From Bacteriovoracaceae bacterium (GTDB lineage Bacteria; Bdellovibrionota; Bacteriovoracia; Bacteriovoracales; Bacteriovoracaceae), in assembly GCA_947446575.1 (NCBI GenBank), contig CANFHC010000007.1, positions 65,763 to 129,762 on the forward strand: DNA of 64,000 bases, in the 5' to 3' direction. Each line of letters begins with the position of its first letter. Position 1 is the stretch's first letter. Positions 13,890 to 22,059 of the stretch are shown here, one piece after another. The notes under the pieces were generated by a model that saw nothing but the letters and a program-made list of their open reading frames with translations, did not search any database and was not told the DNA's origin. Position numbers and translations under genes: made by a program.

Positions 13890-13975
13890 GCCTTGGTGGT
13901 GGAATGGTAGACGCAGCGGATTCAAAATCCGCCGTTCGAAAGGATGTGCGAGTTCGAGTCTCGCCCGAGGCACCA
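13890..13975 (+). tRNA. tRNA-Leu (anticodon CAA), type II with a long variable arm, CCA encoded
   Basis: I folded it by hand. The acceptor stem gccttgg pairs with ccgaggc. The anticodon stem gcgga and tccgc flanks the loop tt-CAA-aa. The variable arm is 18 nt, the T arm is gcgag-ttcgagt-ctcgc, and the 3' end is a-CCA. Confidence 0.85.
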
Positions 13976-13995
13976 TCTATACGTATAGTGTAACC
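13966..13995 (+). repeat. att-type direct repeat, copy 1 (3' end of tRNA-Leu plus flank: cgaggcaccatctatacgtatagtgtaacc)
   Basis: About 26 of 30 nt recur at 14137-14167 and 20605-20634. Confidence 0.7.
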
Positions 13996-14112
13996 TAAGC
14001 TAAAATCAATTATAATATTTTGAATCAGGACATATAGATGACAAAGTTTAACGGGCAATGGAATGGGCCTGACGTTTTTACTAGCTGTAATCAAGTTCCA
14101 TGAAAATTGATA

Positions 14113-14167
14113 TCTCAGTTCGATATTCGTCAACTACGGTGCACCATCTATGCGTATAGTGTAAACT
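14113..14167 (+). repeat. Composite att-like repeat: a degenerate tRNA T-arm/acceptor 3'-half copy (tctcagttcgatattcgtcaactacggtgcacca) fused to copy 2 of the tRNA 3'-end repeat
   Basis: The first 34 nt recur nearly identically at 16230-16263 and 21990-22022. The following 31 nt match the tRNA-Leu 3' end and flank. Confidence 0.7.
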
Positions 14168-14300
14168 CCGCTATTACTTCAAATCATGCTTGATCTAAAA
14201 ATATTTAAAGAAATCTCTATTGTGAGTTAACGAAAGATCAATTCTCAACGATTAGTTGAGGCAGGTATTCAATTTAATAATTAAAACTATGCGAACATAA

Positions 14301-14789
14301 TTAAAATTCAACAAACAATCCCTCAACTTGCCCAAGATTGTTTATTCTTACTTTTCTTCCAAGACCACAATCAAGATAATTTTTTTTCAACACAAAGGGC
14401 CGAGATGAATCTATCTCTACTTTCTTAATACAGTTATTTCCCCAATACTTGGAAATTTGATCGATTGAAAAATTCTCTTCATTAGAAAAATTTGGAAAAA
14501 AACTTATCGCTTTTAACTGTTCATCTTTAATACCAATAGACCAACTTTGATGATTAGTATTTTTGTCTTTGTAAATTAAGTATATATGCTTTGATTTGAC
14601 ATCGTTATAAACTTCAGTTGGATTTCCTAGAATTTGAACAATTTTCTCTCTACTCCATTTTTCATTTTGCATACTTAGCAAATATTTCCATTCTCGATCA
14701 ACATTATCAGTTAAATTTTCATTTTTGGTCACAAGAGAACAAGAAAGAGTTGTGAGCAAGAAACCGATTAAATAGAACTTTTTTTTCAT
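14301..14789 (-). CDS. Lipoprotein, copy 1 (intact), partner of the upstream HExxH protein; candidate cognate inhibitor or immunity protein
   Basis: The lipobox is TLSC|S. It has conserved W...SIGI...FFPN.SN...YWGNNC...LDCG.GRKV..NNL motifs shared with 18510..19031 and the 16329..16808 pseudogene. Its ATGA start overlaps the upstream gene by 4 bp. Confidence 0.6.
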   Translation of the reverse strand: MKKKFYLIGFLLTTLSCSLVTKNENLTDNVDREWKYLLSMQNEKWSREKIVQILGNPTEVYNDVKSKHIYLIYKDKNTNHQSWSIGIKDEQLKAISFFPNFSNEENFSIDQISKYWGNNCIKKVEIDSSRPFVLKKNYLDCGLGRKVRINNLGQVEGLFVEF

Positions 14790-15496
14790 CTTATAATTCC
14801 TAAAAGCGAACGGAGATAATTCATAATTTCTTTATCAATGACTTTGGAATGATTTTTATCACTAATTAAATGTTCTACATTGTTTGCAAAATCTTCTTCG
14901 GGACTTAATTTACCATCAGGTTCAGAAAATTGCGTTCGAGGTGTGTGGAAAACATCTTTTTCAATTTCATTCCACTTTGAAATAGATCGGTAATCTTCTT
15001 TTTCATTTTTATCCAGATGTGAATAAAGAACATGGGCCATCTCATGAGCAAGAGCTCTCTTCAGTCCAAATTTAAATACACTGTCGTATAACACAATTAT
15101 TGAATCATCTGGACCTGACGAAGAATGGTTGTCTGGGAAAGCTGACTTCACTGCCCTAAAAATTCTTATTTCACCAAGATCTTTTAATGTTTTTGGAAGT
15201 GAATTAATTGCGCTCTCAATTTCTTTTTTTTCGTTTTCAGATGAGGACTTAAAAATTTCTAATTGAAAAGGCCATCCCCTTGGCATTGTATCTTTAAAAA
15301 CTAATTTGAGTGGATTAAAAAAATGATTAGTTCGGCAATGAGCTGAGACAGTTGTTTCTTTTACGAATGTGCCATCAGTTCTGTAGTAAGCATTGCGCTT
15401 ATAAGTATTTACAAAATACTGCCCGCTTGGACACTTTGAAGTTTCAGCACTCGAAATCTGAGCAAACAATATAAAAAATAAAAAAATGAACTTCAT
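14786..15496 (-). CDS. Secreted HExxH-motif putative zinc metallopeptidase, copy 1 (intact)
   Basis: It has a signal peptide and a conserved CP.GQ...C pair. The HExxH motif is ALAHEMAHVLY, and a conserved SPEEDFANNVEH lies about 45 aa downstream, a gluzincin-like spacing. It has two paralogues in the island. Confidence 0.6.
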   Translation of the reverse strand: MKFIFLFFILFAQISSAETSKCPSGQYFVNTYKRNAYYRTDGTFVKETTVSAHCRTNHFFNPLKLVFKDTMPRGWPFQLEIFKSSSENEKKEIESAINSLPKTLKDLGEIRIFRAVKSAFPDNHSSSGPDDSIIVLYDSVFKFGLKRALAHEMAHVLYSHLDKNEKEDYRSISKWNEIEKDVFHTPRTQFSEPDGKLSPEEDFANNVEHLISDKNHSKVIDKEIMNYLRSLLGIIR

Positions 15497-15626
15497 AATA
15501 TGATCATATAATTTTATACAGTTACGTCAACTGCTAATTCAAATTTGAAATAATCTATCATTTTCTTATCAAATTTATTTTTTTAATCTTCATCTCTCCT
15601 TATAAGTAAAATTTAAGGAGATTCAA

Positions 15627-16154
15627 ATGACAAAAATAGAAAATGAAATTTTCAAAATTAAAAATATGATTTACTTAATAAGAGATCATAAGGTAATGCT
15701 TGATAGCGACCTAGCTCTGCTTTATGGAGTCGAAACGAAAGTTCTTAATCAGCAGGTCAAAAGGAATTTAAAAAGATTTCCTCCCGATTTTATGTTTCAA
15801 CTCACAAGTGAAGAATTCAATATTTTAAAATCTCAAATTGCGTCTTCAAAATTTGGCAGCGGAGGAAAACAAAAACTCCCATTAGTCTTTACTGAAAATG
15901 GAGTAGCGATGTTATCTGGTATTCTTAACTCTGATCGAGCCATCAATGTAAATATCAGTATTATGAGAATTTTTACAAAGCTCCGAAGCTTTCATGCACT
16001 AGAAACTAACTTGTCTGGAGAAGTAAAAGAGTTAAAAGAAAATTCAAACAAACTATTCAAAGCCATTTTTGAAAGACTAGATTCTATAGAAGATGATCTA
16101 ATTCCCAAACTTCCTAACCAACGAAAAAAAATTGGTATTAACGCTAATGAATAA
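15627..16154 (+). CDS. ORF6N-domain protein (KilA-N/antirepressor-like DNA-binding domain family)
   Basis: The N-terminus (KVMLDSDLALLYGVETKVLNQQVKRNLKRFPPDFMFQLT) matches the ORF6N domain pattern. Its C-terminal half is duplicated at 21714..21959. Confidence 0.65.
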   Translation: MTKIENEIFKIKNMIYLIRDHKVMLDSDLALLYGVETKVLNQQVKRNLKRFPPDFMFQLTSEEFNILKSQIASSKFGSGGKQKLPLVFTENGVAMLSGILNSDRAINVNISIMRIFTKLRSFHALETNLSGEVKELKENSNKLFKAIFERLDSIEDDLIPKLPNQRKKIGINANE

Positions 16155-16202
16155 GTTTGAAGTCACAACTCATGTCCCTAAGTGTCTAAAACAATGAGCT
16201 TT

Positions 16203-16227
16203 TTGAAGTCACAAATTGTGACTTCAA
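16203..16227 (+). terminator. Perfect palindrome ttgaagtcaca-aat-tgtgacttcaa immediately downstream of the ORF6N gene, followed by att-like repeat A2
   Basis: It is an 11-bp inverted repeat. An analogous, sequence-unrelated palindrome (aaggttccaa-at-ttggaacctt) at 21965-21987 precedes repeat A3. Confidence 0.4.
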
Positions 16228-16229
16228 AA

Positions 16230-16263
16230 TCTCAGTTCGATATTCGTCAACTCCGGTGCACCA
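16230..16263 (+). repeat. att-like repeat A2 (tctcagttcgatattcgtcaactccggtgcacca)
   Basis: 33 of 34 nt are identical to 14113-14146. Confidence 0.7.
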
Positions 16264-16328
16264 AATATTTTAACTAACTAATTTCTTAAGTTTTCTAAAA
16301 AATACCACCGAAGGTATGCGAACCAGAA

Positions 16329-16808
16329 CTAATTCTTAAGAAGTAGATATTGAATTTCTTTTTTATTAAAATAGTAAACTTTTATCTTATTAGTACATTC
16401 AAACCAAAATTTATTTTCAATAAAATCTGGATGGACAACTTGTCCTTTAGAATCAGTACAGTTAAAATTTTTCCAGTGACTTTTTATCCCATCATAAGAA
16501 AATTCATTTAAGTCTTTCTCTTGTGGGATGAAGGAAAAGCTATTTACCTGATGATTTCCCTTATACATGATTGCAAAAGTTTGAAGTTGTGAATCTTGAT
16601 TCACTTAAATATTGGCACCATCACTTAATTGCTTTTTTGGTTTCCCCAAATTAAGTTCAATTTGTTCTCTTGTTAATTGATTAGAAATAATGCCATTAAT
16701 AATATCCCAAGAAGTGAGAGCTTTCATTGGTTTTTGCAAAGGCTTGGTGCCAGTAGTGCAAGAAAATATAAATAGAATTAATAAGAAAAGGCTATTTTTA
16801 TTTGTCAT
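16329..16808 (-). pseudogene. Lipoprotein, copy 2, interrupted by an in-frame TAA (16605-16607) directly followed by GTG
   Basis: The 67 aa piece (lipobox IFSC|T) and the 91 aa piece are contiguous in one frame. Their combined length and conserved Cys and Trp pattern match the intact copies. Confidence 0.55.
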
Positions 16809-16872
16809 TTTTTATCCCCAAAATATTTTTCAAACAATTTTCTATTGCTGGAGAGATCTTTTGTTTGTAATT

Positions 16873-17500
16873 TTAATTTGTTATTAAATGCTCTACATTG
16901 TTCGCAAAATCTTCTTCTGGACTTAAACGTCCATCTTCTTCAGATATAACTGCTCTTTGATTAATTACTTCACCTTTTGTATTTAACGCCCAATCGGCAT
17001 CGGAGAAATATTTTTCTTTATTACTTCGATCCAAATTTTTCCATAAAATATGTGACAGTTCATGCACGAGTACTTTTTTAAGGCCGTAAGACTCAGCCTT
17101 ATCATAGACTGTAATAATATTTTCTTCAGCAGCGGTAGTTGCTCCATTCTCTGGCCATTTTGACTGACTAGCTCTAAAGATTTTTAACTCTCCAATTTGC
17201 GTCAGAACGTTAGGGAGCGATTTTAAAATTAACTTTAATTCCTTTTTGTCTTTTGCAGTCCAGCGTTTAAATTTTTCTGTTTTGTTGGGCCAATTTAATG
17301 GCATTTCATTTTTAGGTGTCACCTTTGAAAGTATAGGGTCTCCAGGATTCTTTAACATTAGCAGCACTTACATATTTACCATCTTGTCGTGTGTAATCAC
17401 TTCTGTAGTGAGAAATGACACTGAATGCTCCATCAGGACATTCCTCAGCTAAAACTTTCCCACAAAGCACAAAAAATATTAAAAATATGATCAATCTCAT
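16873..17500 (-). pseudogene. HExxH putative metallopeptidase, copy 2, with a single-base frameshift near 17340-17365
   Basis: The N-terminal 62 aa fragment (signal peptide plus ECPDGAF...) and the 164 aa fragment (…VHELSHILW…SPEEDFANNVEHLI) align to copy 1 in two different frames. Confidence 0.55.
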
Positions 17501-17513
17501 CGTTTTTCTATTC

Positions 17514-17762
17514 TTAATTTACAAGTTTCCAAATTCTTTTTAAATCTTCGACCAAAAGCTCACTTAAAAAAGTAGTCATTGGTTTACTTGATCTCTTCGC
17601 TAATTCTTTAGCTATTTTTAAAATATCAGGAGTTAGTCTCATATTAACTTGCTCTGATTTTATCATCGGAACTTTCCTTTTCTTGGAAGCTTTTTCCATA
17701 ATTTCTTCAAAGTCATTTTTTGTTAAGTCATTTACAGATATTACTTTTTTATTTTTCTTCAT
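17514..17762 (-). CDS. Ribbon-helix-helix/BrnA-like antitoxin
   Basis: The 82 aa product reads ...VNMRLTPDILKIAKELAKRSSKPMTTFLSELLVEDLKR, an RHH-like pattern resembling the BrnA family. The upstream partner is degenerate. Confidence 0.4.
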   Translation of the reverse strand: MKKNKKVISVNDLTKNDFEEIMEKASKKRKVPMIKSEQVNMRLTPDILKIAKELAKRSSKPMTTFLSELLVEDLKRIWKLVN

Positions 17763-17866
17763 TTTTATTTCCTATTTTTTTGCCTTTTTAATTCTAAATG
17801 CATTAATAACACCAATTATCTCCAGATGATTTCCTTCAAAAAGCCATATTAAGCGATAGTATTTAT
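17759..17866 (-). pseudogene. Short ORF (MKKKNKYYRLIWLFEGNHLEIIGVINAFRIKKAKK*) resembling only the C-terminal end of BrnT/DUF497 toxins; truncated toxin remnant
   Basis: It is immediately upstream of, and overlapping, the BrnA-like gene. Its ...IIGVINAFRIKK ending resembles the ...IRIISARKATKKE ending of BrnT. The N-terminal two thirds are missing. Confidence 0.3.
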
Positions 17867-18178
17867 TTTTTTTTCTTCATTTTGTAATTGAATGTCTGAT
17901 ACATAGTATTCAGTGCCTTTTGAGGTCGAGTCTGCTGAGAAGGTTTTTTCATCAAGAGCTAAAATGAGTTGTAAAATGATCACATCGTTAATAGATTCAG
18001 CATGATTTTCTTTGTAATGTTGGCCTATAATCACTCCAGTGATTATATGATCATTTACAGTAATTGGCGCTTTTAAGATAATTAATGCAGATTTTTTCAT
18101 GCTATACATATCATAGCATAAGTACTTATAAATGTATATGTTTGCAGATAAATTGCTATACGCTAAAGTGTTAAACAA
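17849..18178 (-). CDS. Hypothetical ORF (109 aa), possibly non-coding or the frame-shifted N-terminal part of the BrnT-like remnant
   Basis: It is ORF-only evidence in an AT-rich region with no recognisable motif. Confidence 0.2.
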   Translation of the reverse strand: MFNTLAYSNLSANIYIYKYLCYDMYSMKKSALIILKAPITVNDHIITGVIIGQHYKENHAESINDVIILQLILALDEKTFSADSTSKGTEYYVSDIQLQNEEKKINTIA

Positions 18179-18258
18179 TTACTGAATAAATTCAACTTGT
18201 TGGTAATAGTCTGCAGAAACATTTGGAGTTCTTGAAATCTCTTTGAATTTCAAAAATT

Positions 18259-18444
18259 CTAAAGCAGAGTAATACCTTTTTTCTTAATCTTCTGAAAATA
18301 ATTCTGGATGGCGTTTTCAGTCCTTCCGTAATGTTCAGATAATTGTTTCCGAGACCATCCATCTATAAAGCGTAACTTTGCCAACTCACGCAAATCGACT
18401 CTTGGTTCTTGCCACTCAATCAGGTGTGATAAATCAACCGACAA
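18259..18444 (-). CDS. Small helix-turn-helix protein (61 aa), with a truncated second copy at 20406..20597
   Basis: ...LRELAKLRFIDGWSRKQLSEHYGRTENAIQNYFQKIKKKG is HTH-like, possibly a remnant of a transposase or σ-region-4-type DNA-binding domain. Confidence 0.4.
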   Translation of the reverse strand: MSVDLSHLIEWQEPRVDLRELAKLRFIDGWSRKQLSEHYGRTENAIQNYFQKIKKKGITLL

Positions 18445-18509
18445 TAGTGGTTCGTCGATCTTTGCATGGCAGGCACCAATTGGAAGACTAGACGAACCAT
18501 TTAATTTAC

Positions 18510-19031
18510 TTAAAAAACCAATAACAATGAAGAAATTTCCTTTAGATTGTTGAGATAAACTTTTCTTCCCTCACCGCAATCCAAAAAATAAATATTATCA
18601 ATAAAATCTTTATTGTTAATCTGTTCCTTCTTTTCAAGACAAGAATTTCCCCAGTAATTTATTGTATTTTCTTTTTTAAATAAATCTCGATTTGAAATAT
18701 TTGGAAAAAATGTAACAGCGAAAATTTTACCATCAGAAGAAACACCTATGGACCATTTTTGAATATCCAAATTCTTATCTAGATAAATCCAATACTCTTT
18801 ATTCTTTTTTCCTTCACGTAAAATAGAATTAGGAGGACCAAAAACGGCAGTTATTTTTTCACTATTCCAATTTTCATGCTTAATCTTGTTCAGCAACTCC
18901 CATTCATTTTCTTGCTTATTTATTTTATCTGAAACGTGTGGGTGTGTTGTGCAGCCTAAAATGACAAGTAAGAAAATAATGTTTTTAAAAAGTGATATCA
19001 TTTTTTTATACCTAAAATATTTTTTATGCAT
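18510..19031 (-). CDS. Lipoprotein, copy 3 (intact), paralogue of 14301..14789
   Basis: The lipobox is ILGC|T. The conserved motifs W.IYLDKN...WSIGVS...FFPNISN...YWGNSC...LDCGEGRKVYLNNL are present. Confidence 0.6.
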   Translation of the reverse strand: MHKKYFRYKKMISLFKNIIFLLVILGCTTHPHVSDKINKQENEWELLNKIKHENWNSEKITAVFGPPNSILREGKKNKEYWIYLDKNLDIQKWSIGVSSDGKIFAVTFFPNISNRDLFKKENTINYWGNSCLEKKEQINNKDFIDNIYFLDCGEGRKVYLNNLKEISSLLLVF

Positions 19032-19712
19032 TTTTCAATACTGCTACTGATTGCACTGTTATGTTTTTTATCAATCAAAATATGCTCAACATTATTCGCA
19101 AAATCTTCTTCGGGACCTAGTATTCCATCAGTTTCAGAAAATTTTTTTCGAGTTGTTTTAAAATTACTAGACTCTTGTCCCAACCAATCTGCTGCTTTGT
19201 AATAGCTTTTTCGCTCATCATCCGACAGTTTCTTTAAATAACAAATGGGCCATTTCATGAGCTAGGATTCTTTTATAACCAAATGTCTGTGCGTTATCAT
19301 AAAAAACAATGATTGATTCATCGGGCGCTGCCGTTGATGGATTATCTGGAAAAGCTGATCTAATAGCTCTGAGTAGAGTTATTTCTCCCTGATCTCTTAA
19401 CATTTTTGGAAGTTTTGCAATTTCTTTTTCTAATGATTTTTTCTCTCTTGGACTCCACGCTTTAAAAAGTTCTAGTTGATTAGGCCAACCTTCTGGCATG
19501 CTCGAAAGATATTTCAAAATAAGAGGTTTAGAGAAAGTAGATACTTTGCAATACGCTTCAACGTTAGATGAATTTACAAAAGTACCGTTCGTGCGATAAT
19601 AAGAAGTTCGAGGATGCGCATTTACAAGAAATTGCCCCTCCGGGCATTCAAGGGCAAAGACCGAATGAGATAAAAGACTGATAATAGTAATAAAAAAGTA
19701 TCTATTCATCAA
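18998..19712 (-). pseudogene. HExxH putative metallopeptidase, copy 3, with a single-base frameshift inside 'ttgttatttaaagaaactg' at about 19225-19245
   Basis: The 164 aa N-terminal ORF (signal peptide, ECPEGQ, ...AHEMAHLLF) and the 86 aa C-terminal ORF (...GPEEDFANNVEHILI...) are adjacent collinear frames of the copy-1 protein. Confidence 0.55.
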
Positions 19713-19818
19713 AAAATTTTAATTTACCTCTAGATGCAAGTCAACGAAACTGAGGCTTTCAACCAAGTACAATACTCTATAGCTTTGACAAAATGTTCGG
19801 AATAGCGTACATTGACGT

Positions 19819-20109
19819 ATGGTTGTTTTTTAAAAATTTAAAGAATATTCAGATTGGTATGAAGAACAAACGGCCAAAATAAGGGCACAAATTGATGGCC
19901 GACTTGAGAAAATTCGCGACTTCGGCCATTACGGACATGTGAAGAAACTAAGTTCCGTTTTATATGAAATTAAATTTAACAATGGAAATCGAATTTATTA
20001 CACAGAGAGGATGATCAACGGAGAAGTATTGATTTTAATCCAAGGAGGAAATAAAAATGGACAAGACAAAGATATCAAAAAAGCCCAAAAAGCAGCCGAA
20101 AAAATCCAT
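19819..20109 (+). pseudogene. HigB-like 'addiction-module killer' (RelE/ParE-superfamily) gene with TAA at codon 5 (19831-19833)
   Basis: ATG GTT GTT TTT TAA is followed in frame by KFKEYSDWYEEQTAKIRAQIDGRLEKIRDFGHYGHVKKLSSVLYEIKFNNGNRIYYTERMINGEVLILIQGGNKNGQDKDIKKAQKAAEKI. This matches the conserved GDVK.VG.G..ELRI..G.GYRVYF....II.LL.GGDK..QDKDI.KAK pattern of HigB-type killer proteins. Confidence 0.6.
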
Positions 20110-20386
20110 GATGATTAATGGAATAGAACTTTTCAATCACGATCCATCCCTAATCTTTAAGAATCATAAAGAAATTAAGCTAGCACTCTTTGAGGCGTTG
20201 TTTGATGGAGACAAGGAAGCTTTTGTTGATATTTTATCAGGCTATGTGCGCGCACATAATATTTTAGAGGTTTGCCAGCGAACGGGTTTAAGCCGTACCG
20301 TAGTTTATGAGGCCATCAGTGATAATGGCAACCCATCGCTGGATACATTGTGTAAGATAATGACTTCGTTTAAAAAAGTGGCGTAA
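20057..20386 (+). CDS. HigA-like addiction-module antidote (HTH DNA-binding) protein
   Basis: The 109 aa gene overlaps the killer gene 3' end in the +1 frame. The C-terminal HTH reads ...VCQRTGLSRTVVYEAISDNGNPSLDTLCKIM. Confidence 0.6.
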   Translation: MDKTKISKKPKKQPKKSMMINGIELFNHDPSLIFKNHKEIKLALFEALFDGDKEAFVDILSGYVRAHNILEVCQRTGLSRTVVYEAISDNGNPSLDTLCKIMTSFKKVA

Positions 20387-20405
20387 ACACATTCACAATT
20401 AAAGC

Positions 20406-20597
20406 TCAAAAACCTTTCTTTTTAATATTTTGAAAATAATTTTGAATGGCCATCTCTGTCCACCCATAATGTTCTGCTAATCGTTGCCTCGACCATCCAT
20501 CAATAAAGCGTAGTTTTGCCATCTCCGCTAGATTCACTCTCAACTCGCGCCACTGGATCGTGTAAAGTGTCCCTGTCGTCAGTGGTTCTTCTACCTT
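20406..20597 (-). pseudogene. Degenerate second copy of the small HTH ORF (no proper start; MAKLRFIDGWSRQRLAEHYGWTEMAIQNYFQNIKKKGF*)
   Basis: It is about 70% nucleotide similarity to 18290-18430. An upstream in-frame TAG and the absence of ATG leave a 38 aa Met-initiated remnant. Confidence 0.4.
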
Positions 20598-20604
20598 ATT
20601 GCGA

Positions 20605-20634
20605 CGGGCACCATCTATACGACTAGTGCAAACT
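20605..20634 (+). repeat. att-type direct repeat, copy 3 (cgggcaccatctatacgactagtgcaaact)
   Basis: It matches the tRNA-Leu 3' end and flank (gcaccatctatacg.a.tagtg.aa) at 13966-13995 and 14137-14167. Confidence 0.65.
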
Positions 20635-20680
20635 AAATTGATTAATCTTCTTCTAACCTAAACATTTTTATCAATTTTTT

Positions 20681-21604
20681 TTAATGTCGTTTTAAAGCAG
20701 CATCTAGATAACTCTTAGCCACAAAAGGATTGGACAAAAAATTATTCATTTTTAAAATTTGTTCAGAGGAATAAAAGCTAGATTTATAGAACTTAGCATA
20801 TGACTCAATTAACCAGTAAGTGGCATCTGACGTACTAATTCTTAACTCCGCTGCAGGGTAAGACATAATTACATCATATACAGAATTGGCTATATTTTTT
20901 GTCTTAAAGTTAGCTACAAGATAAGAGGCATATCTCTTAATTCTTTCATCTTTTGATTTTAGTGCCTCAATTACTAAAGGTTCTAAAGACGATAACTGTT
21001 TTTTAGACATTACGACTGAGCCATTAGAATATGTAATTTTATCTTGCTTAAAGTTTGAACCTAATGCTTCATAAAATCTTTTATCTTTTCCAAATCCTAG
21101 GTCGTTTGCCATGATTGTAAAAGGACGATCTGGTTCATCGGTATTTGAAGAGAACAGTTCAACATTTCCAGAAAGTGGTGAAAAGTCATAATAAAAAAAC
21201 ATTGAAGATTTTAATTGTAATTTTTCGGAATCAAATTCACGAATCCCTCTATTCGTAGAAACGAAAATATTTCCTGAATTAGAATTTTTAACAAAATCAT
21301 TTACGAGAAGAGATTCAACTCCCTGTCCACCATATGAAAGTAGTAACTTGTGAGAGTTTTTATCATAGACTTGAAAACCATCTCCTCTCCAATCATATTC
21401 GCCACCAGAGCCAAATGCGATCCAGATCTGATTATCAAATTCTTTTACAGTAACAATTAAGCAGCCATACTCAGGACAGAGGTTAATTATCTGAAGTTTA
21501 AACTTATCGTTCTTTATTTTTATAAAAATTTCTTTGCAAAATGATCCTCCCTCTTGACTCTGATCTAAGTTTTGACATTTTAAATACTCAACATTGATAT
21601 GCAT
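20681..21604 (-). CDS. Hypothetical protein; the ORF track extends it to 21769 (362 aa), but the upstream part overlaps the ORF6N fragment, and the internal Met at 21604 (307 aa) is more likely
   Basis: It is a long open frame with no signal peptide and no family recognised by eye. Confidence 0.4.
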   Translation of the reverse strand: MHINVEYLKCQNLDQSQEGGSFCKEIFIKIKNDKFKLQIINLCPEYGCLIVTVKEFDNQIWIAFGSGGEYDWRGDGFQVYDKNSHKLLLSYGGQGVESLLVNDFVKNSNSGNIFVSTNRGIREFDSEKLQLKSSMFFYYDFSPLSGNVELFSSNTDEPDRPFTIMANDLGFGKDKRFYEALGSNFKQDKITYSNGSVVMSKKQLSSLEPLVIEALKSKDERIKRYASYLVANFKTKNIANSVYDVIMSYPAAELRISTSDATYWLIESYAKFYKSSFYSSEQILKMNNFLSNPFVAKSYLDAALKRH

Positions 21605-21713
21605 TTTATCATTTATCAGAAACTCATTAACTACCCCGTTTGCAGGTAGACCTCTTCTAGATTCAAGTCTAGGGTTAATGATTGATCCTGCTTTTAGCGA
21701 GAAAGATGTTGAA

Positions 21714-21959
21714 ATGCTATCAAGTGTTTTATCAAGTGACCGTGCTGTTGAAATTAATATCTCAATCATGAGAATTTTTACAAAACTTAGAAGTTTTCAT
21801 GCACTTGAAAGTAATTTAGCCACAGAACTCCAAAATTTTAAGGATAATGTAAATGGTCTATTTAAAGTTGTTTTTACTAGATTGGATGGCATTGAAGATG
21901 ATCTAACACCAAAACTTTCAGAGCAGCGAAAAAAAATTGGAATCAAGGTTGAATCTTAA
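21714..21959 (+). pseudogene. Truncated duplicate of the ORF6N-protein C-terminal half (N-terminal DNA-binding domain missing)
   Basis: MLSSVLSSDRAVEINISIMRIFTKLRSFHALESNLATELQNFKDNVNGLFKVVFTRLDGIEDDLTPKLSEQRKKIGIKVES is about 70% identical to residues 95-175 of 15627..16154. Confidence 0.5.
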
Positions 21960-21989
21960 AGATTAAGGTTCCAAATTGGAACCTTAATA

Positions 21990-22022
21990 GCTCAGTTCGA
22001 AGATCGTCAACTCCGGTGCACT
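21990..22022 (+). repeat. att-like repeat A3 (gctcagttcgaagatcgtcaactccggtgcac), the probable distal boundary of the island
   Basis: About 29 of 33 nt are identical to A1 and A2, and a palindrome precedes it at 21965-21987. Confidence 0.6.
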
Positions 22023-22059
22023 ATCTTATATTATTTGTATCTAGATTCCTAAAAAATAT

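Follow-up and report, generated by a model that had tools for sequence, protein, structure and literature searches.

A stretch of 64,000 nucleotides from a predatory, Bacteriovorax-like Bacteriovoracaceae bacterium (contig CANFHC010000007.1; "the window" below means this whole stretch) carries three copies of a two-gene module in which a gene for a predicted secreted metallopeptidase is followed by a gene for a lipoprotein. Judged from its sequence, the pair has the genetic signature of an enzyme with its cognate neutraliser, placed on a probably mobile unit. We propose that the lipoprotein is the cognate, self-protecting inhibitor of a mobile secreted peptidase; the inhibition is a prediction, and we rate this reading as about evenly balanced between right and wrong. 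The analysis establishes which fold classes the proteins belong to, the catalytic motifs and export signals, a near-universal coupling of the two genes, their co-divergence and purifying selection on both.

Three module copies in the window

An earlier note on this DNA had described three peptidase-lipoprotein modules on the minus strand at 14301-19712, and both the open reading frames (ORFs) and a six-frame profile search confirmed them. The search recovered the peptidase pieces with E-values of 1e-116, 3.5e-52 and 3.5e-67 and the lipoprotein pieces with 5.5e-49, 1e-15 and 1e-45, and it found no module copy beyond these three in the 64 kb. The 14-19 kb stretch has a G+C content of ~30-32%, against ~35% for the window. 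Identity among the copies is 38-50% for the peptidases and 24-38% for the lipoproteins, which replaces the range of 35-45% first given.

The modules are not equally well preserved. Copy 1 is intact and its two genes overlap by ATGA (14786-14789), as described, but the other two are disrupted, copy 3 by a frameshift in the peptidase gene and copy 2 in both genes, leaving copy 1 as the only fully intact module of the three (Table 1). The lesion in copy 3 splits PEP3 into two ORFs (19218-19712 and 18998-19258). The rebuilt PEP3 shares 91% identity with P0039, an intact database protein of 236 aa that reads continuously as AHLLFKKLSDDE across the point of the frameshift, and the ATGA overlap is present in this copy too (18998-19001). 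Copy 2 is dead in both genes. Recoding of its stop codons was considered and ruled out: both in-frame stops are TAA, and they are accompanied by a frameshift and by the loss of a conserved Cys.

Next to the ATGA overlap, within the conserved C-terminal LLGI codons of the peptidase, there is a Shine-Dalgarno-like AGGA or GGGGA. From this layout, the module is predicted to be one operon whose two exported products would be made from one message in fixed proportion. The Shine-Dalgarno-like sequence of the lipoprotein gene falls on the C-terminal ...LLGI(K/I)(K/R) of the peptidase (minus strand 14790-14810, 16809-16830 and 19002-19020), and this protein motif may be constrained at the RNA level also.

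The two protein families and their coupling

Searches of Pfam, NCBIfam, PADLOC and PHROGs assigned neither protein to a named family, in agreement with the earlier note; the window peptidase had no Pfam match at E up to 1. A word-indexed search returned 48 homologues of the peptidase, every one unnamed or "hypothetical," and the few with an organism name come from Bacteriovorax or Bacteriovoracaceae metagenome-assembled genomes. An exhaustive profile search, with clustering at 50% identity, reached 670 clusters at an E-value threshold of 1e-3 and 166 at one of 1e-30, almost all of 230-265 aa in length; ten distant cluster representatives that we sampled were called "hypothetical protein" or had no name. 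Viral contigs scanned with the peptidase alignment held no relative, so nothing there speaks for a phage origin.

Conservation in this family centers on the presumed active site. In the alignment of 48 homologues, H151, E152, E201, D202, F203 and N205 are invariant, and H155 (at least 90%), a Cys at position 22 and several other positions are nearly so; 32 of 33 module peptidases retain the catalytic motifs. An AlphaFold2 model of PEP1 (pLDDT 87.8, pTM 0.82) has three parts: a signal peptide, a small N-terminal β domain with the Cys pair, and a catalytic domain. The HExxH motif lies in helix 145-160, and the Glu of PEEDFANN lies in helix 199-212, 50 residues past H151, where, by analogy with lethal factor and MtfA, E201 would be the third zinc ligand. 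The spacing from HExxH to this motif had been put at ~45 aa; the conserved Glu is in fact ~50 residues away. The motif had also been called invariant, which holds for PEEDFANNVEH in the three copies but not for the preceding residue, which is G rather than S in copy 3.

The zincin fold that had been anticipated is what the model predicts. The peptidase is most likely a Sec-exported zinc endopeptidase of the HExxH...E type from a previously unnamed family, with a modeled fold nearest to MtfA (M90) and to the group of the Pro-Pro endopeptidases (PPEPs) and anthrax lethal factor (M34). The top structural matches include PPEP-2 and PPEP-3; similarity to BepA and M48 is weak. Two features set the window family apart from these relatives: it has a signal peptide, whereas MtfA is cytoplasmic, and it has an extra N-terminal, disulfide-bonded β domain that is absent from MtfA/M90 and PPEP/lethal factor/M34. 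At the sequence level, family members gave subthreshold Pfam matches to M90, ATLF, Mx1 and M78. The window protein itself matched neither ATLF (M34), to which 2 of the 48 relatives have a match (best E 0.042), nor Peptidase_M90, to which 4 of the 48 do (best E 3.5e-4). Against the sequences of the Protein Data Bank (PDB), the peptidase profile returned nothing better than matches with E above 0.03. One relative, at locus L025 (4615-5394, in a minimal 1.7-kb cassette of a Bdellovibrio sp. metagenome-assembled genome), has YEFSH as its catalytic motif and a ratio of nonsynonymous to synonymous rates (dN/dS) of 0.10 relative to L028, in a comparison where dS is close to saturation; this protein may be inactive or have an altered metal.

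The lipoprotein family is far more divergent, with a mean column identity of 24% and with the lipobox Cys and one Gly as its near-invariant residues. The lipobox reads ...LTTLSC in LIP1, with the Cys at residue 17, and ...VILGC in LIP3, and at least 90% of 38 sequences have its Cys. In Escherichia coli, the lipoprotein sorting rule relates the residue after this Cys to the membrane destination. Here, that residue is S, A or T and in no sequence Asp, which, by the E. coli rule, points to a lipoprotein of the outer-membrane type. The conserved motifs listed in the earlier note (WSIG, FFPN.SN, YWGN.C and LDCG.GRKV) hold for copies 1 and 3, but copy 2 has FAIM, FIPQEKD, HWKNFNC and FECTNKIKV in their place.

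A model of LIP1 built from 13 sequences (pLDDT 81.5 overall and above 87 past residue 30) shows two repeats, each a helix pair followed by four strands. On this model, LIP1 is a tandem BamE/BLIP-like repeat, and the inhibitor-type fold that had been suggested is borne out to the extent that the model falls in a group with BLIP and type VI secretion system (T6SS) immunity proteins. The same tandem repeat of a helix pair on a four-stranded sheet occurs in BLIP, BLP, BamE (SmpA_OmlA) and the DUF4309 group, which includes the T6SS immunity proteins TsiN and BtiO. The fold group has several members that act as tightly binding inhibitors or as immunity proteins. The lipoprotein lies below all family sequence thresholds: Pfam BamE gave E 0.22 and 11.8 bits against a cut-off of 23.2, which places it outside PF04355 and PF07467, and the lipoprotein alignment profile matched BamE in the PDB with E 0.007. 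The known targets of the fold group are β-lactamases or T6SS toxins, and no metallopeptidase is known among them.

We examined the coupling of the two genes in a main set of 40 loci, 39 from a genome scan with the peptidase alignment plus L001. Across these, an ORF of ~160-190 aa comes after the peptidase ORF in nearly every case, mostly with a 4-nt overlap; counted overall, the 45 related loci have a homologous lipoprotein gene directly after the peptidase gene, usually with ATGA. Almost all downstream ORFs have a lipobox, and an iterated hidden Markov model joined them and the window lipoproteins in one family. In a six-frame search, the order was peptidase then lipoprotein in every locus with enough sequence. 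The lipoprotein as bait, with a narrower alignment, found only four metagenome loci, and the peptidase gene stood upstream in these as well. Titles that name a lineage in the 39-locus scan are Bdellovibrionota (Bacteriovorax, Bacteriovoracaceae, Bdellovibrio, Pseudobdellovibrionaceae and Bdellovibrionales) or older umbrella names. The co-occurrence that the earlier note had proposed to survey is essentially complete, and among named genomes it is limited to those of the Bdellovibrionota type.

The two genes also diverge together. Pairwise identities of peptidases and lipoproteins correlate with r = 0.90, and the lipoprotein is the more diverged partner in 528 of 528 comparisons. For unsaturated pairs, dN/dS is 0.10-0.20 in the peptidase and 0.14-0.33 in the lipoprotein, values that place both genes under purifying selection. 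Decay, by comparison, is one-sided. In seven modules (window copy 3, L027, L036, L037, L038, L043 and L044), the peptidase is broken and the lipoprotein beside it intact, and no module has the opposite combination; given the gene lengths, the probability that all seven lesions fall in the peptidase is ~0.025. This asymmetry is the expected outcome if an unopposed peptidase is harmful.

The cassette array at tRNA-Leu(CAA)

The modules sit on a tRNA-linked island, as had been suggested, which is delimited by tRNA-Leu(CAA) and by a series of boundary sites. The pattern GTTC-N19-GCACYA occurs five times in the window, always on the plus strand and always at a unit end, against an expectation of 0.11, and none of 100 shuffles reached five. 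The five units so delimited fill 13976-22023, from tRNA-Leu(CAA) to a chemoreceptor-like core gene beyond boundary site 5. Modules 1, 2 and 3 each occupy a unit of their own, with the lipoprotein stop toward the preceding boundary site.

The boundary sites fall in three sequence types, each also found in other genomes, and junctions are near-identical between genomes. Boundary site 1 has the flank TCTATGCGTATAGTG, a repeat of the flank downstream of the tRNA, and boundary site 4 with its flanks is near-identical to two junctions in L004. We term these sites pseudo-tRNA ends rather than displaced tRNA halves because Rfam did not call them tRNA fragments. There is also a second motif, AAGSTATKCGAACC, at a distance of 1-10 nt from the lipoprotein stop, both in window copies 1-3 and in L001, L003, L004, L007, L026 and L044; located between boundary site and stop, it repeats in inverted form the GGTTCG...CTT part of the boundary site. 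In addition, TCTATRCG.ATAGTG, with the palindrome CTATACGTATAG, stands right after three GCACCA ends (13976-14002, 14147-14173 and 20614-20640) and is conserved after the junction in L004. This element may be native tRNA flank or a second recombination or terminator element.

Related loci show the same arrangement. GTTC-N19-GCACYA occurs in the same orientation relative to the module in nine other loci, among them L001, L003, L004, L006, L007, L009, L014 and L043. The distance between the lipoprotein stop and the 3' end of a tRNA gene, for tRNA-Leu(GAG), tRNA-Leu(CAA) or tRNA-Arg, is 3-24 nt in L001, L003 and L006. L025 contains a 1.7-kb insert of the two module genes alone, with a partial tRNA-Leu copy of ~55 nt on one side and the tRNA itself on the other, and tRNA-end repeats are also present in L022 (a perfect 47 nt) and L006. 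The core genes of the window (the upstream epimerase and an acyltransferase) stand next to the same tRNA-Leu(CAA) in L003, L008, L009 and L005, and L005 has an array at the same position, from the tRNA-Leu toward truA, with partly different cargo. L026 is the only locus with recombinase genes beside the module, namely two for tyrosine recombinases.

The closest relatives of the window peptidases are found elsewhere, at 98% (P0001), 60% (L011) and 91% (P0039) identity, compared with 38-50% within the window. The earlier note had read the copies as an old local duplication; they proved instead to be separate bounded cassettes with closer relatives in other genomes. We consider it likely that related cassettes of ~2.1 kb were inserted one after another, site-specifically, at tRNA-Leu(CAA) and that this gave rise to the three copies, with mobility predicted from the sequence of the units and their junctions.

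In a typical cassette, the peptidase and lipoprotein genes are accompanied by a small helix-turn-helix (HTH) gene and by one of the toxin-antitoxin or ORF6N type. The co-cargo in the window is an ORF6N gene in unit 1; a ribbon-helix-helix (RHH)-like ORF, a 109-aa ORF and a small HTH ORF in unit 2; and a truncated HigB-like gene, a HigA-like gene and an HTH remnant in unit 3. The antidote of unit 3 matched dnstrm_HI1420 (8e-11) and TIGR02684 (1e-12). The HTH ORF has a paralogous remnant at 20406-20543 on the minus strand, and the same ORF follows junctions in L004 and L007. No secretion-system gene was found in the island, either in the ORF list or by Pfam.

Several further observations concern the cargo. 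A C-terminal remnant of an ORF6N paralogue (21594-21959, plus strand) ends unit 4; after it, as after the ORF6N gene, come first a perfect hairpin and next a boundary site. The ~60-aa HTH ORF (...WQEPRVDLRELAKLRFIDGWSRKQL...) starts directly past boundary sites in several genomes; its library matches are weak ones to HTH_23 and Terminase_5, and it could be an excisionase-like or regulatory cassette gene. Small gene pairs also lie inside cassettes elsewhere, HigBA-like by Pfam in L001 and L003 and judged from ORF lists in L004, L005 and L007. In L007 (6926-9340), fragmented transposase-like ORFs, read from the ORF list, stand between the small gene pair and the peptidase and enlarge the unit from ~2.5 to 5.2 kb.

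Table 1. Features of the tRNA-Leu(CAA) island in the window
Feature	Position	Strand	Description
tRNA-Leu(CAA)	13890-13975	+	ARAGORN; Rfam tRNA 52 bits; anchor of the cassette array
Boundary site 1	14118-14146	+	GTTC-N19-GCACCA, pseudo-tRNA 3' end; closes empty 171-nt unit 13976-14146
Terminator-like hairpin	14244-14260	-	Downstream of LIP1; consensus match only
Near-end motif AAACTATGCGAACA	14285-14300	+	Adjoins the LIP1 stop codon
LIP1	14301-14789	-	162 aa, intact lipoprotein; lipobox LSC, Cys17
PEP1	14786-15496	-	236 aa, intact; predicted secreted zincin; signal peptide, Cys22/Cys54 pair, H151-E-x-x-H155, E201 within PEEDFANNVEH
Promoter-like site TTGACG-16-TATGAT	15503-15530	-	Just 5' of PEP1; consensus match only
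ORF6N-domain gene	15627-16154	+	Unit 1; Pfam ORF6N 2.4e-32; PADLOC PDC-S05 (candidate defence) 3.3e-54; PHROG anti-repressor
Boundary site 2	16235-16263	+	End of unit 1 (14147-16263, 2117 nt)
Near-end motif AAGGTATGCGAACC	16311-16324	+	Unit 2
LIP2 pseudogene	16329-16808	-	In-frame TAA at 16605-16607; nearest relative L011 lipoprotein, 50% identity
PEP2 pseudogene	16798-17500	-	Frameshift near 17320; in-frame TAA 16873-16875; second conserved Cys changed to Trp; nearest relative L011 peptidase, 60% identity
RHH/CopG-like small ORF	17514-17762	-	Unit 2; weak assignment: Pfam NikA-like, CopG_antitoxin, BrnA, E 0.02-0.06
61-aa HTH ORF	18259-18444	-	Right after boundary site; Pfam HTH_23 4e-4; recurrent cassette gene
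Boundary site 3	18450-18478	+	End of unit 2 (16264-18478, 2215 nt)
Near-end motif AGACTAGACGAACC	18485-18500	+	Near-perfect inverted copy of GGTTCGTCGATCTT in boundary site 3
LIP3	18510-19001	-	163 aa, intact; true start is the ATG at 19001
PEP3	18998-19712	-	One +1 frameshift (extra A in run 19233-19235), remainder complete
Promoter-like site TTGACT-17-TAAAAT	19716-19744		Just 5' of PEP3; consensus match only
HigB-like toxin remnant and HigA-like antidote	19939-20386	+	Unit 3; remnant 19939-20118, 59-aa C-terminal, ORF-list reading; antidote 20057-20386 intact, overlapped by the remnant
Boundary site 4	20585-20613	+	End of unit 3 (18479-20613, 2135 nt)
362-aa ORF	20681-21769	-	Unit 4 cargo, no peptidase module; no match in Pfam, NCBIfam, PADLOC, PHROGs
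Boundary site 5	21995-22023	+	End of unit 4 (20614-22023, 1410 nt); outer island end

Proposed function, alternatives and known systems

In the mechanism that we propose, the lipoprotein would bind its cognate peptidase in the envelope of the producer; bound peptidase would be blocked or sequestered and the producer protected, and free peptidase would act on an external target. Envelope proteins of prey or competitors are a plausible target because the family is seen, among named genomes, only in predatory Bdellovibrionota. Physical binding, inhibition and the target are what we infer from the pattern as a whole. An inhibitor fits that pattern best because the enzyme keeps its catalytic residues while its partner evolves faster, co-diverges with it and has an inhibitor/immunity-type fold, because the partner is kept when the enzyme decays, and because the genetics is that of a mobile accessory element with toxin-antitoxin genes and a restriction to predators.

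Several observations weigh against this account. The closest structural matches of the lipoprotein are not known inhibitors, and no inhibitory loop can be assigned because family-wide conservation is limited to the lipobox Cys and one Gly. The dN/dS analysis found gene-wide positive selection in neither gene. The asymmetry of seven to none comes largely from metagenome assemblies, in which frameshifts may be errors, and the frameshift of copy 3 is a single base within a short A run. The module peptidase of L025 has replaced HExxH altogether. As for mobility, the 29-nt geometry of the boundary sites, compared with 24 nt in the real tRNA, shows that they are not simple displaced tRNA fragments, and GCACCA is all that they have in common with it. 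Moreover, neither the ORF list nor Pfam or NCBIfam gave a recombinase or integrase gene in the island (13976-22023), so cassette movement would need a recombinase from elsewhere.

The lipoprotein could instead be a docking, activating or chaperoning partner that tethers the peptidase to the outer membrane or surface as a two-subunit protease. Strict 1:1 coupling and co-divergence suit any obligate complex, BamE-type lipoproteins are typically scaffold subunits, and the absence of known inhibitors among the closest structural matches suits such a role as well. However, a helper is useless without its peptidase, yet the one-sided decay leaves seven intact lipoproteins beside broken peptidases, and a partner that evolves faster in every comparison is more typical of a target-tracking binder than of a scaffold; we regard this alternative as unlikely. 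Housekeeping maintenance of the envelope, such as outer-membrane protein quality control with a BamE-like partner and an incidental tRNA position, would accord with the BamE-like fold, the weak similarity of the peptidase to BepA/M48 and purifying selection on both genes. Variable copy number, frequent pseudogenes, several different tRNAs and toxin-antitoxin company in bounded cassettes are instead accessory behavior, and the best-matching paralogues are found in other genomes, which makes such a role improbable. It is harder still to see the lipoprotein as a substrate whose cleavage would release or remodel a surface lipoprotein in the manner of the PPEPs. The structural matches to PPEP-2 and PPEP-3 suggest the idea, and there is precedent in that the substrates of PPEP-1 and PPEP-2 are the products of genes next to that of the protease (PMC12828418). 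PPEP substrates are large adhesins, though, rather than compact two-domain lipoproteins; Pro-Pro occurs in 3 of 33 lipoproteins, never at a conserved position, and the alignment of the family shows no conserved linear motif. With a conserved Pro-Pro absent, we rejected a PPEP-style relationship as very improbable.

A further alternative concerns the array, which could be an old in-place tandem duplication that copied the pseudo-tRNA ends along. Units 1-3 are indeed alike in size (2117, 2215 and 2135 nt) and share one orientation. Their co-cargo, however, differs by unit (ORF6N; RHH and HTH; a HigBA remnant and HTH), the cargo of unit 4 is unrelated, and the three boundary-site types are each common to other genomes. 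Closer relatives also exist in other genomes (60-98% identity, compared with 38-50% in the window), distances that point away from a clade of the three window copies alone, and the L005 array holds other cargo at the same position. We therefore give in-place duplication little credence and retain serial insertion of cassettes.

The nearest functional parallel is the KLIKK-peptidase/potempin system of Tannerella forsythia, in which each secreted peptidase shares its transcript with a small lipoprotein of the outer membrane that inhibits this one peptidase specifically and protects the surface of the producer (PMC9890683). As in the window, peptidase and lipoprotein genes are adjacent and a genome holds several diverged pairs. 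Potempin genes, however, lie upstream of the peptidase genes rather than downstream and overlapping; potempins are OB-folds or eight-stranded β-barrels rather than BamE/BLIP-like repeats; and KLIKK peptidases belong to known families (M10, M43, M4 and S8) with no sequence homology to the pair described here, for which inhibition is predicted. Closer in phylogeny, the DD-endopeptidases Bd3459 and Bd0816 of Bdellovibrio bacteriovorus are neutralised in the predator by Bd3460, the product of an adjacent gene (PMC4686830). The earlier note had named this precedent, and it holds as a functional analogy, with the same phylum and the same logic of self-protection from a predator-secreted hydrolase. 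It does not extend to homology: Bd3459 is a PBP4-type peptidoglycan DD-endopeptidase and Bd3460 a soluble ankyrin-repeat protein, neither related in fold or sequence to our pair. Polymorphic toxin/immunity systems (T6SS, contact-dependent inhibition and Rhs) have dedicated delivery, whereas the peptidase, 236 aa long, stands alone, with a signal peptide of the Sec type and no delivery domain.

The array, for its part, resembles islands at tRNA genes, which arise by serial integration, have tRNA-end repeats at island ends and include tandem arrays and integrase-less, cis-mobilisable elements (Islander, PMC4383910). Shared features are insertion at the tRNA 3' end, tRNA-end-like repeats at unit ends, a series of several units and, in a related element (L026), a recombinase. 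Unlike the usual islands, the units are 1.4-2.2 kb long, lack an integrase and combine a 29-nt pseudo-tRNA site with an inverted partner motif. Integron cassette arrays are similar in layout only, and no intI-like gene was found among the ORFs at 12-34 kb.

Taken further, the Bdellovibrionota might share a horizontally exchanged arsenal of mini-cassettes, each pairing a secreted zincin against prey or rival envelopes with a cognate outer-membrane lipoprotein antidote. An integron-like, tRNA-anchored system would stack and shuffle these cassettes through the 29-nt pseudo-tRNA sites, whose half-site mimics the T-arm, with recombinases supplied in trans, and orphan lipoproteins would then protect against the peptidases of other predators. 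We offer this picture as speculation and think it unlikely.

The general kind of system, a secreted peptidase with a co-encoded lipoprotein protector on a tRNA-linked island, was already known. What appears to be new is the combination of an M34/M90-like zincin, a tandem BamE/BLIP-like lipoprotein and a ~2-kb integrase-less cassette that stacks with defined junctions. How predators protect themselves from their own secreted hydrolases is little understood, with one pair, Bd3459/Bd3460, worked out mechanistically. The finding defines a sizeable, unannotated protein pair (~670 clusters at 50% identity for the peptidase) that is confined to predators among named genomes. If the lipoprotein is an inhibitor, a BamE/BLIP-like scaffold would be used against a metallopeptidase, and the pair would provide a simple two-protein test system. 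The stacking at a tRNA gene of ~2-kb units that lack an integrase and have defined 29-nt junctions may account for the spread of accessory weapons among predators.

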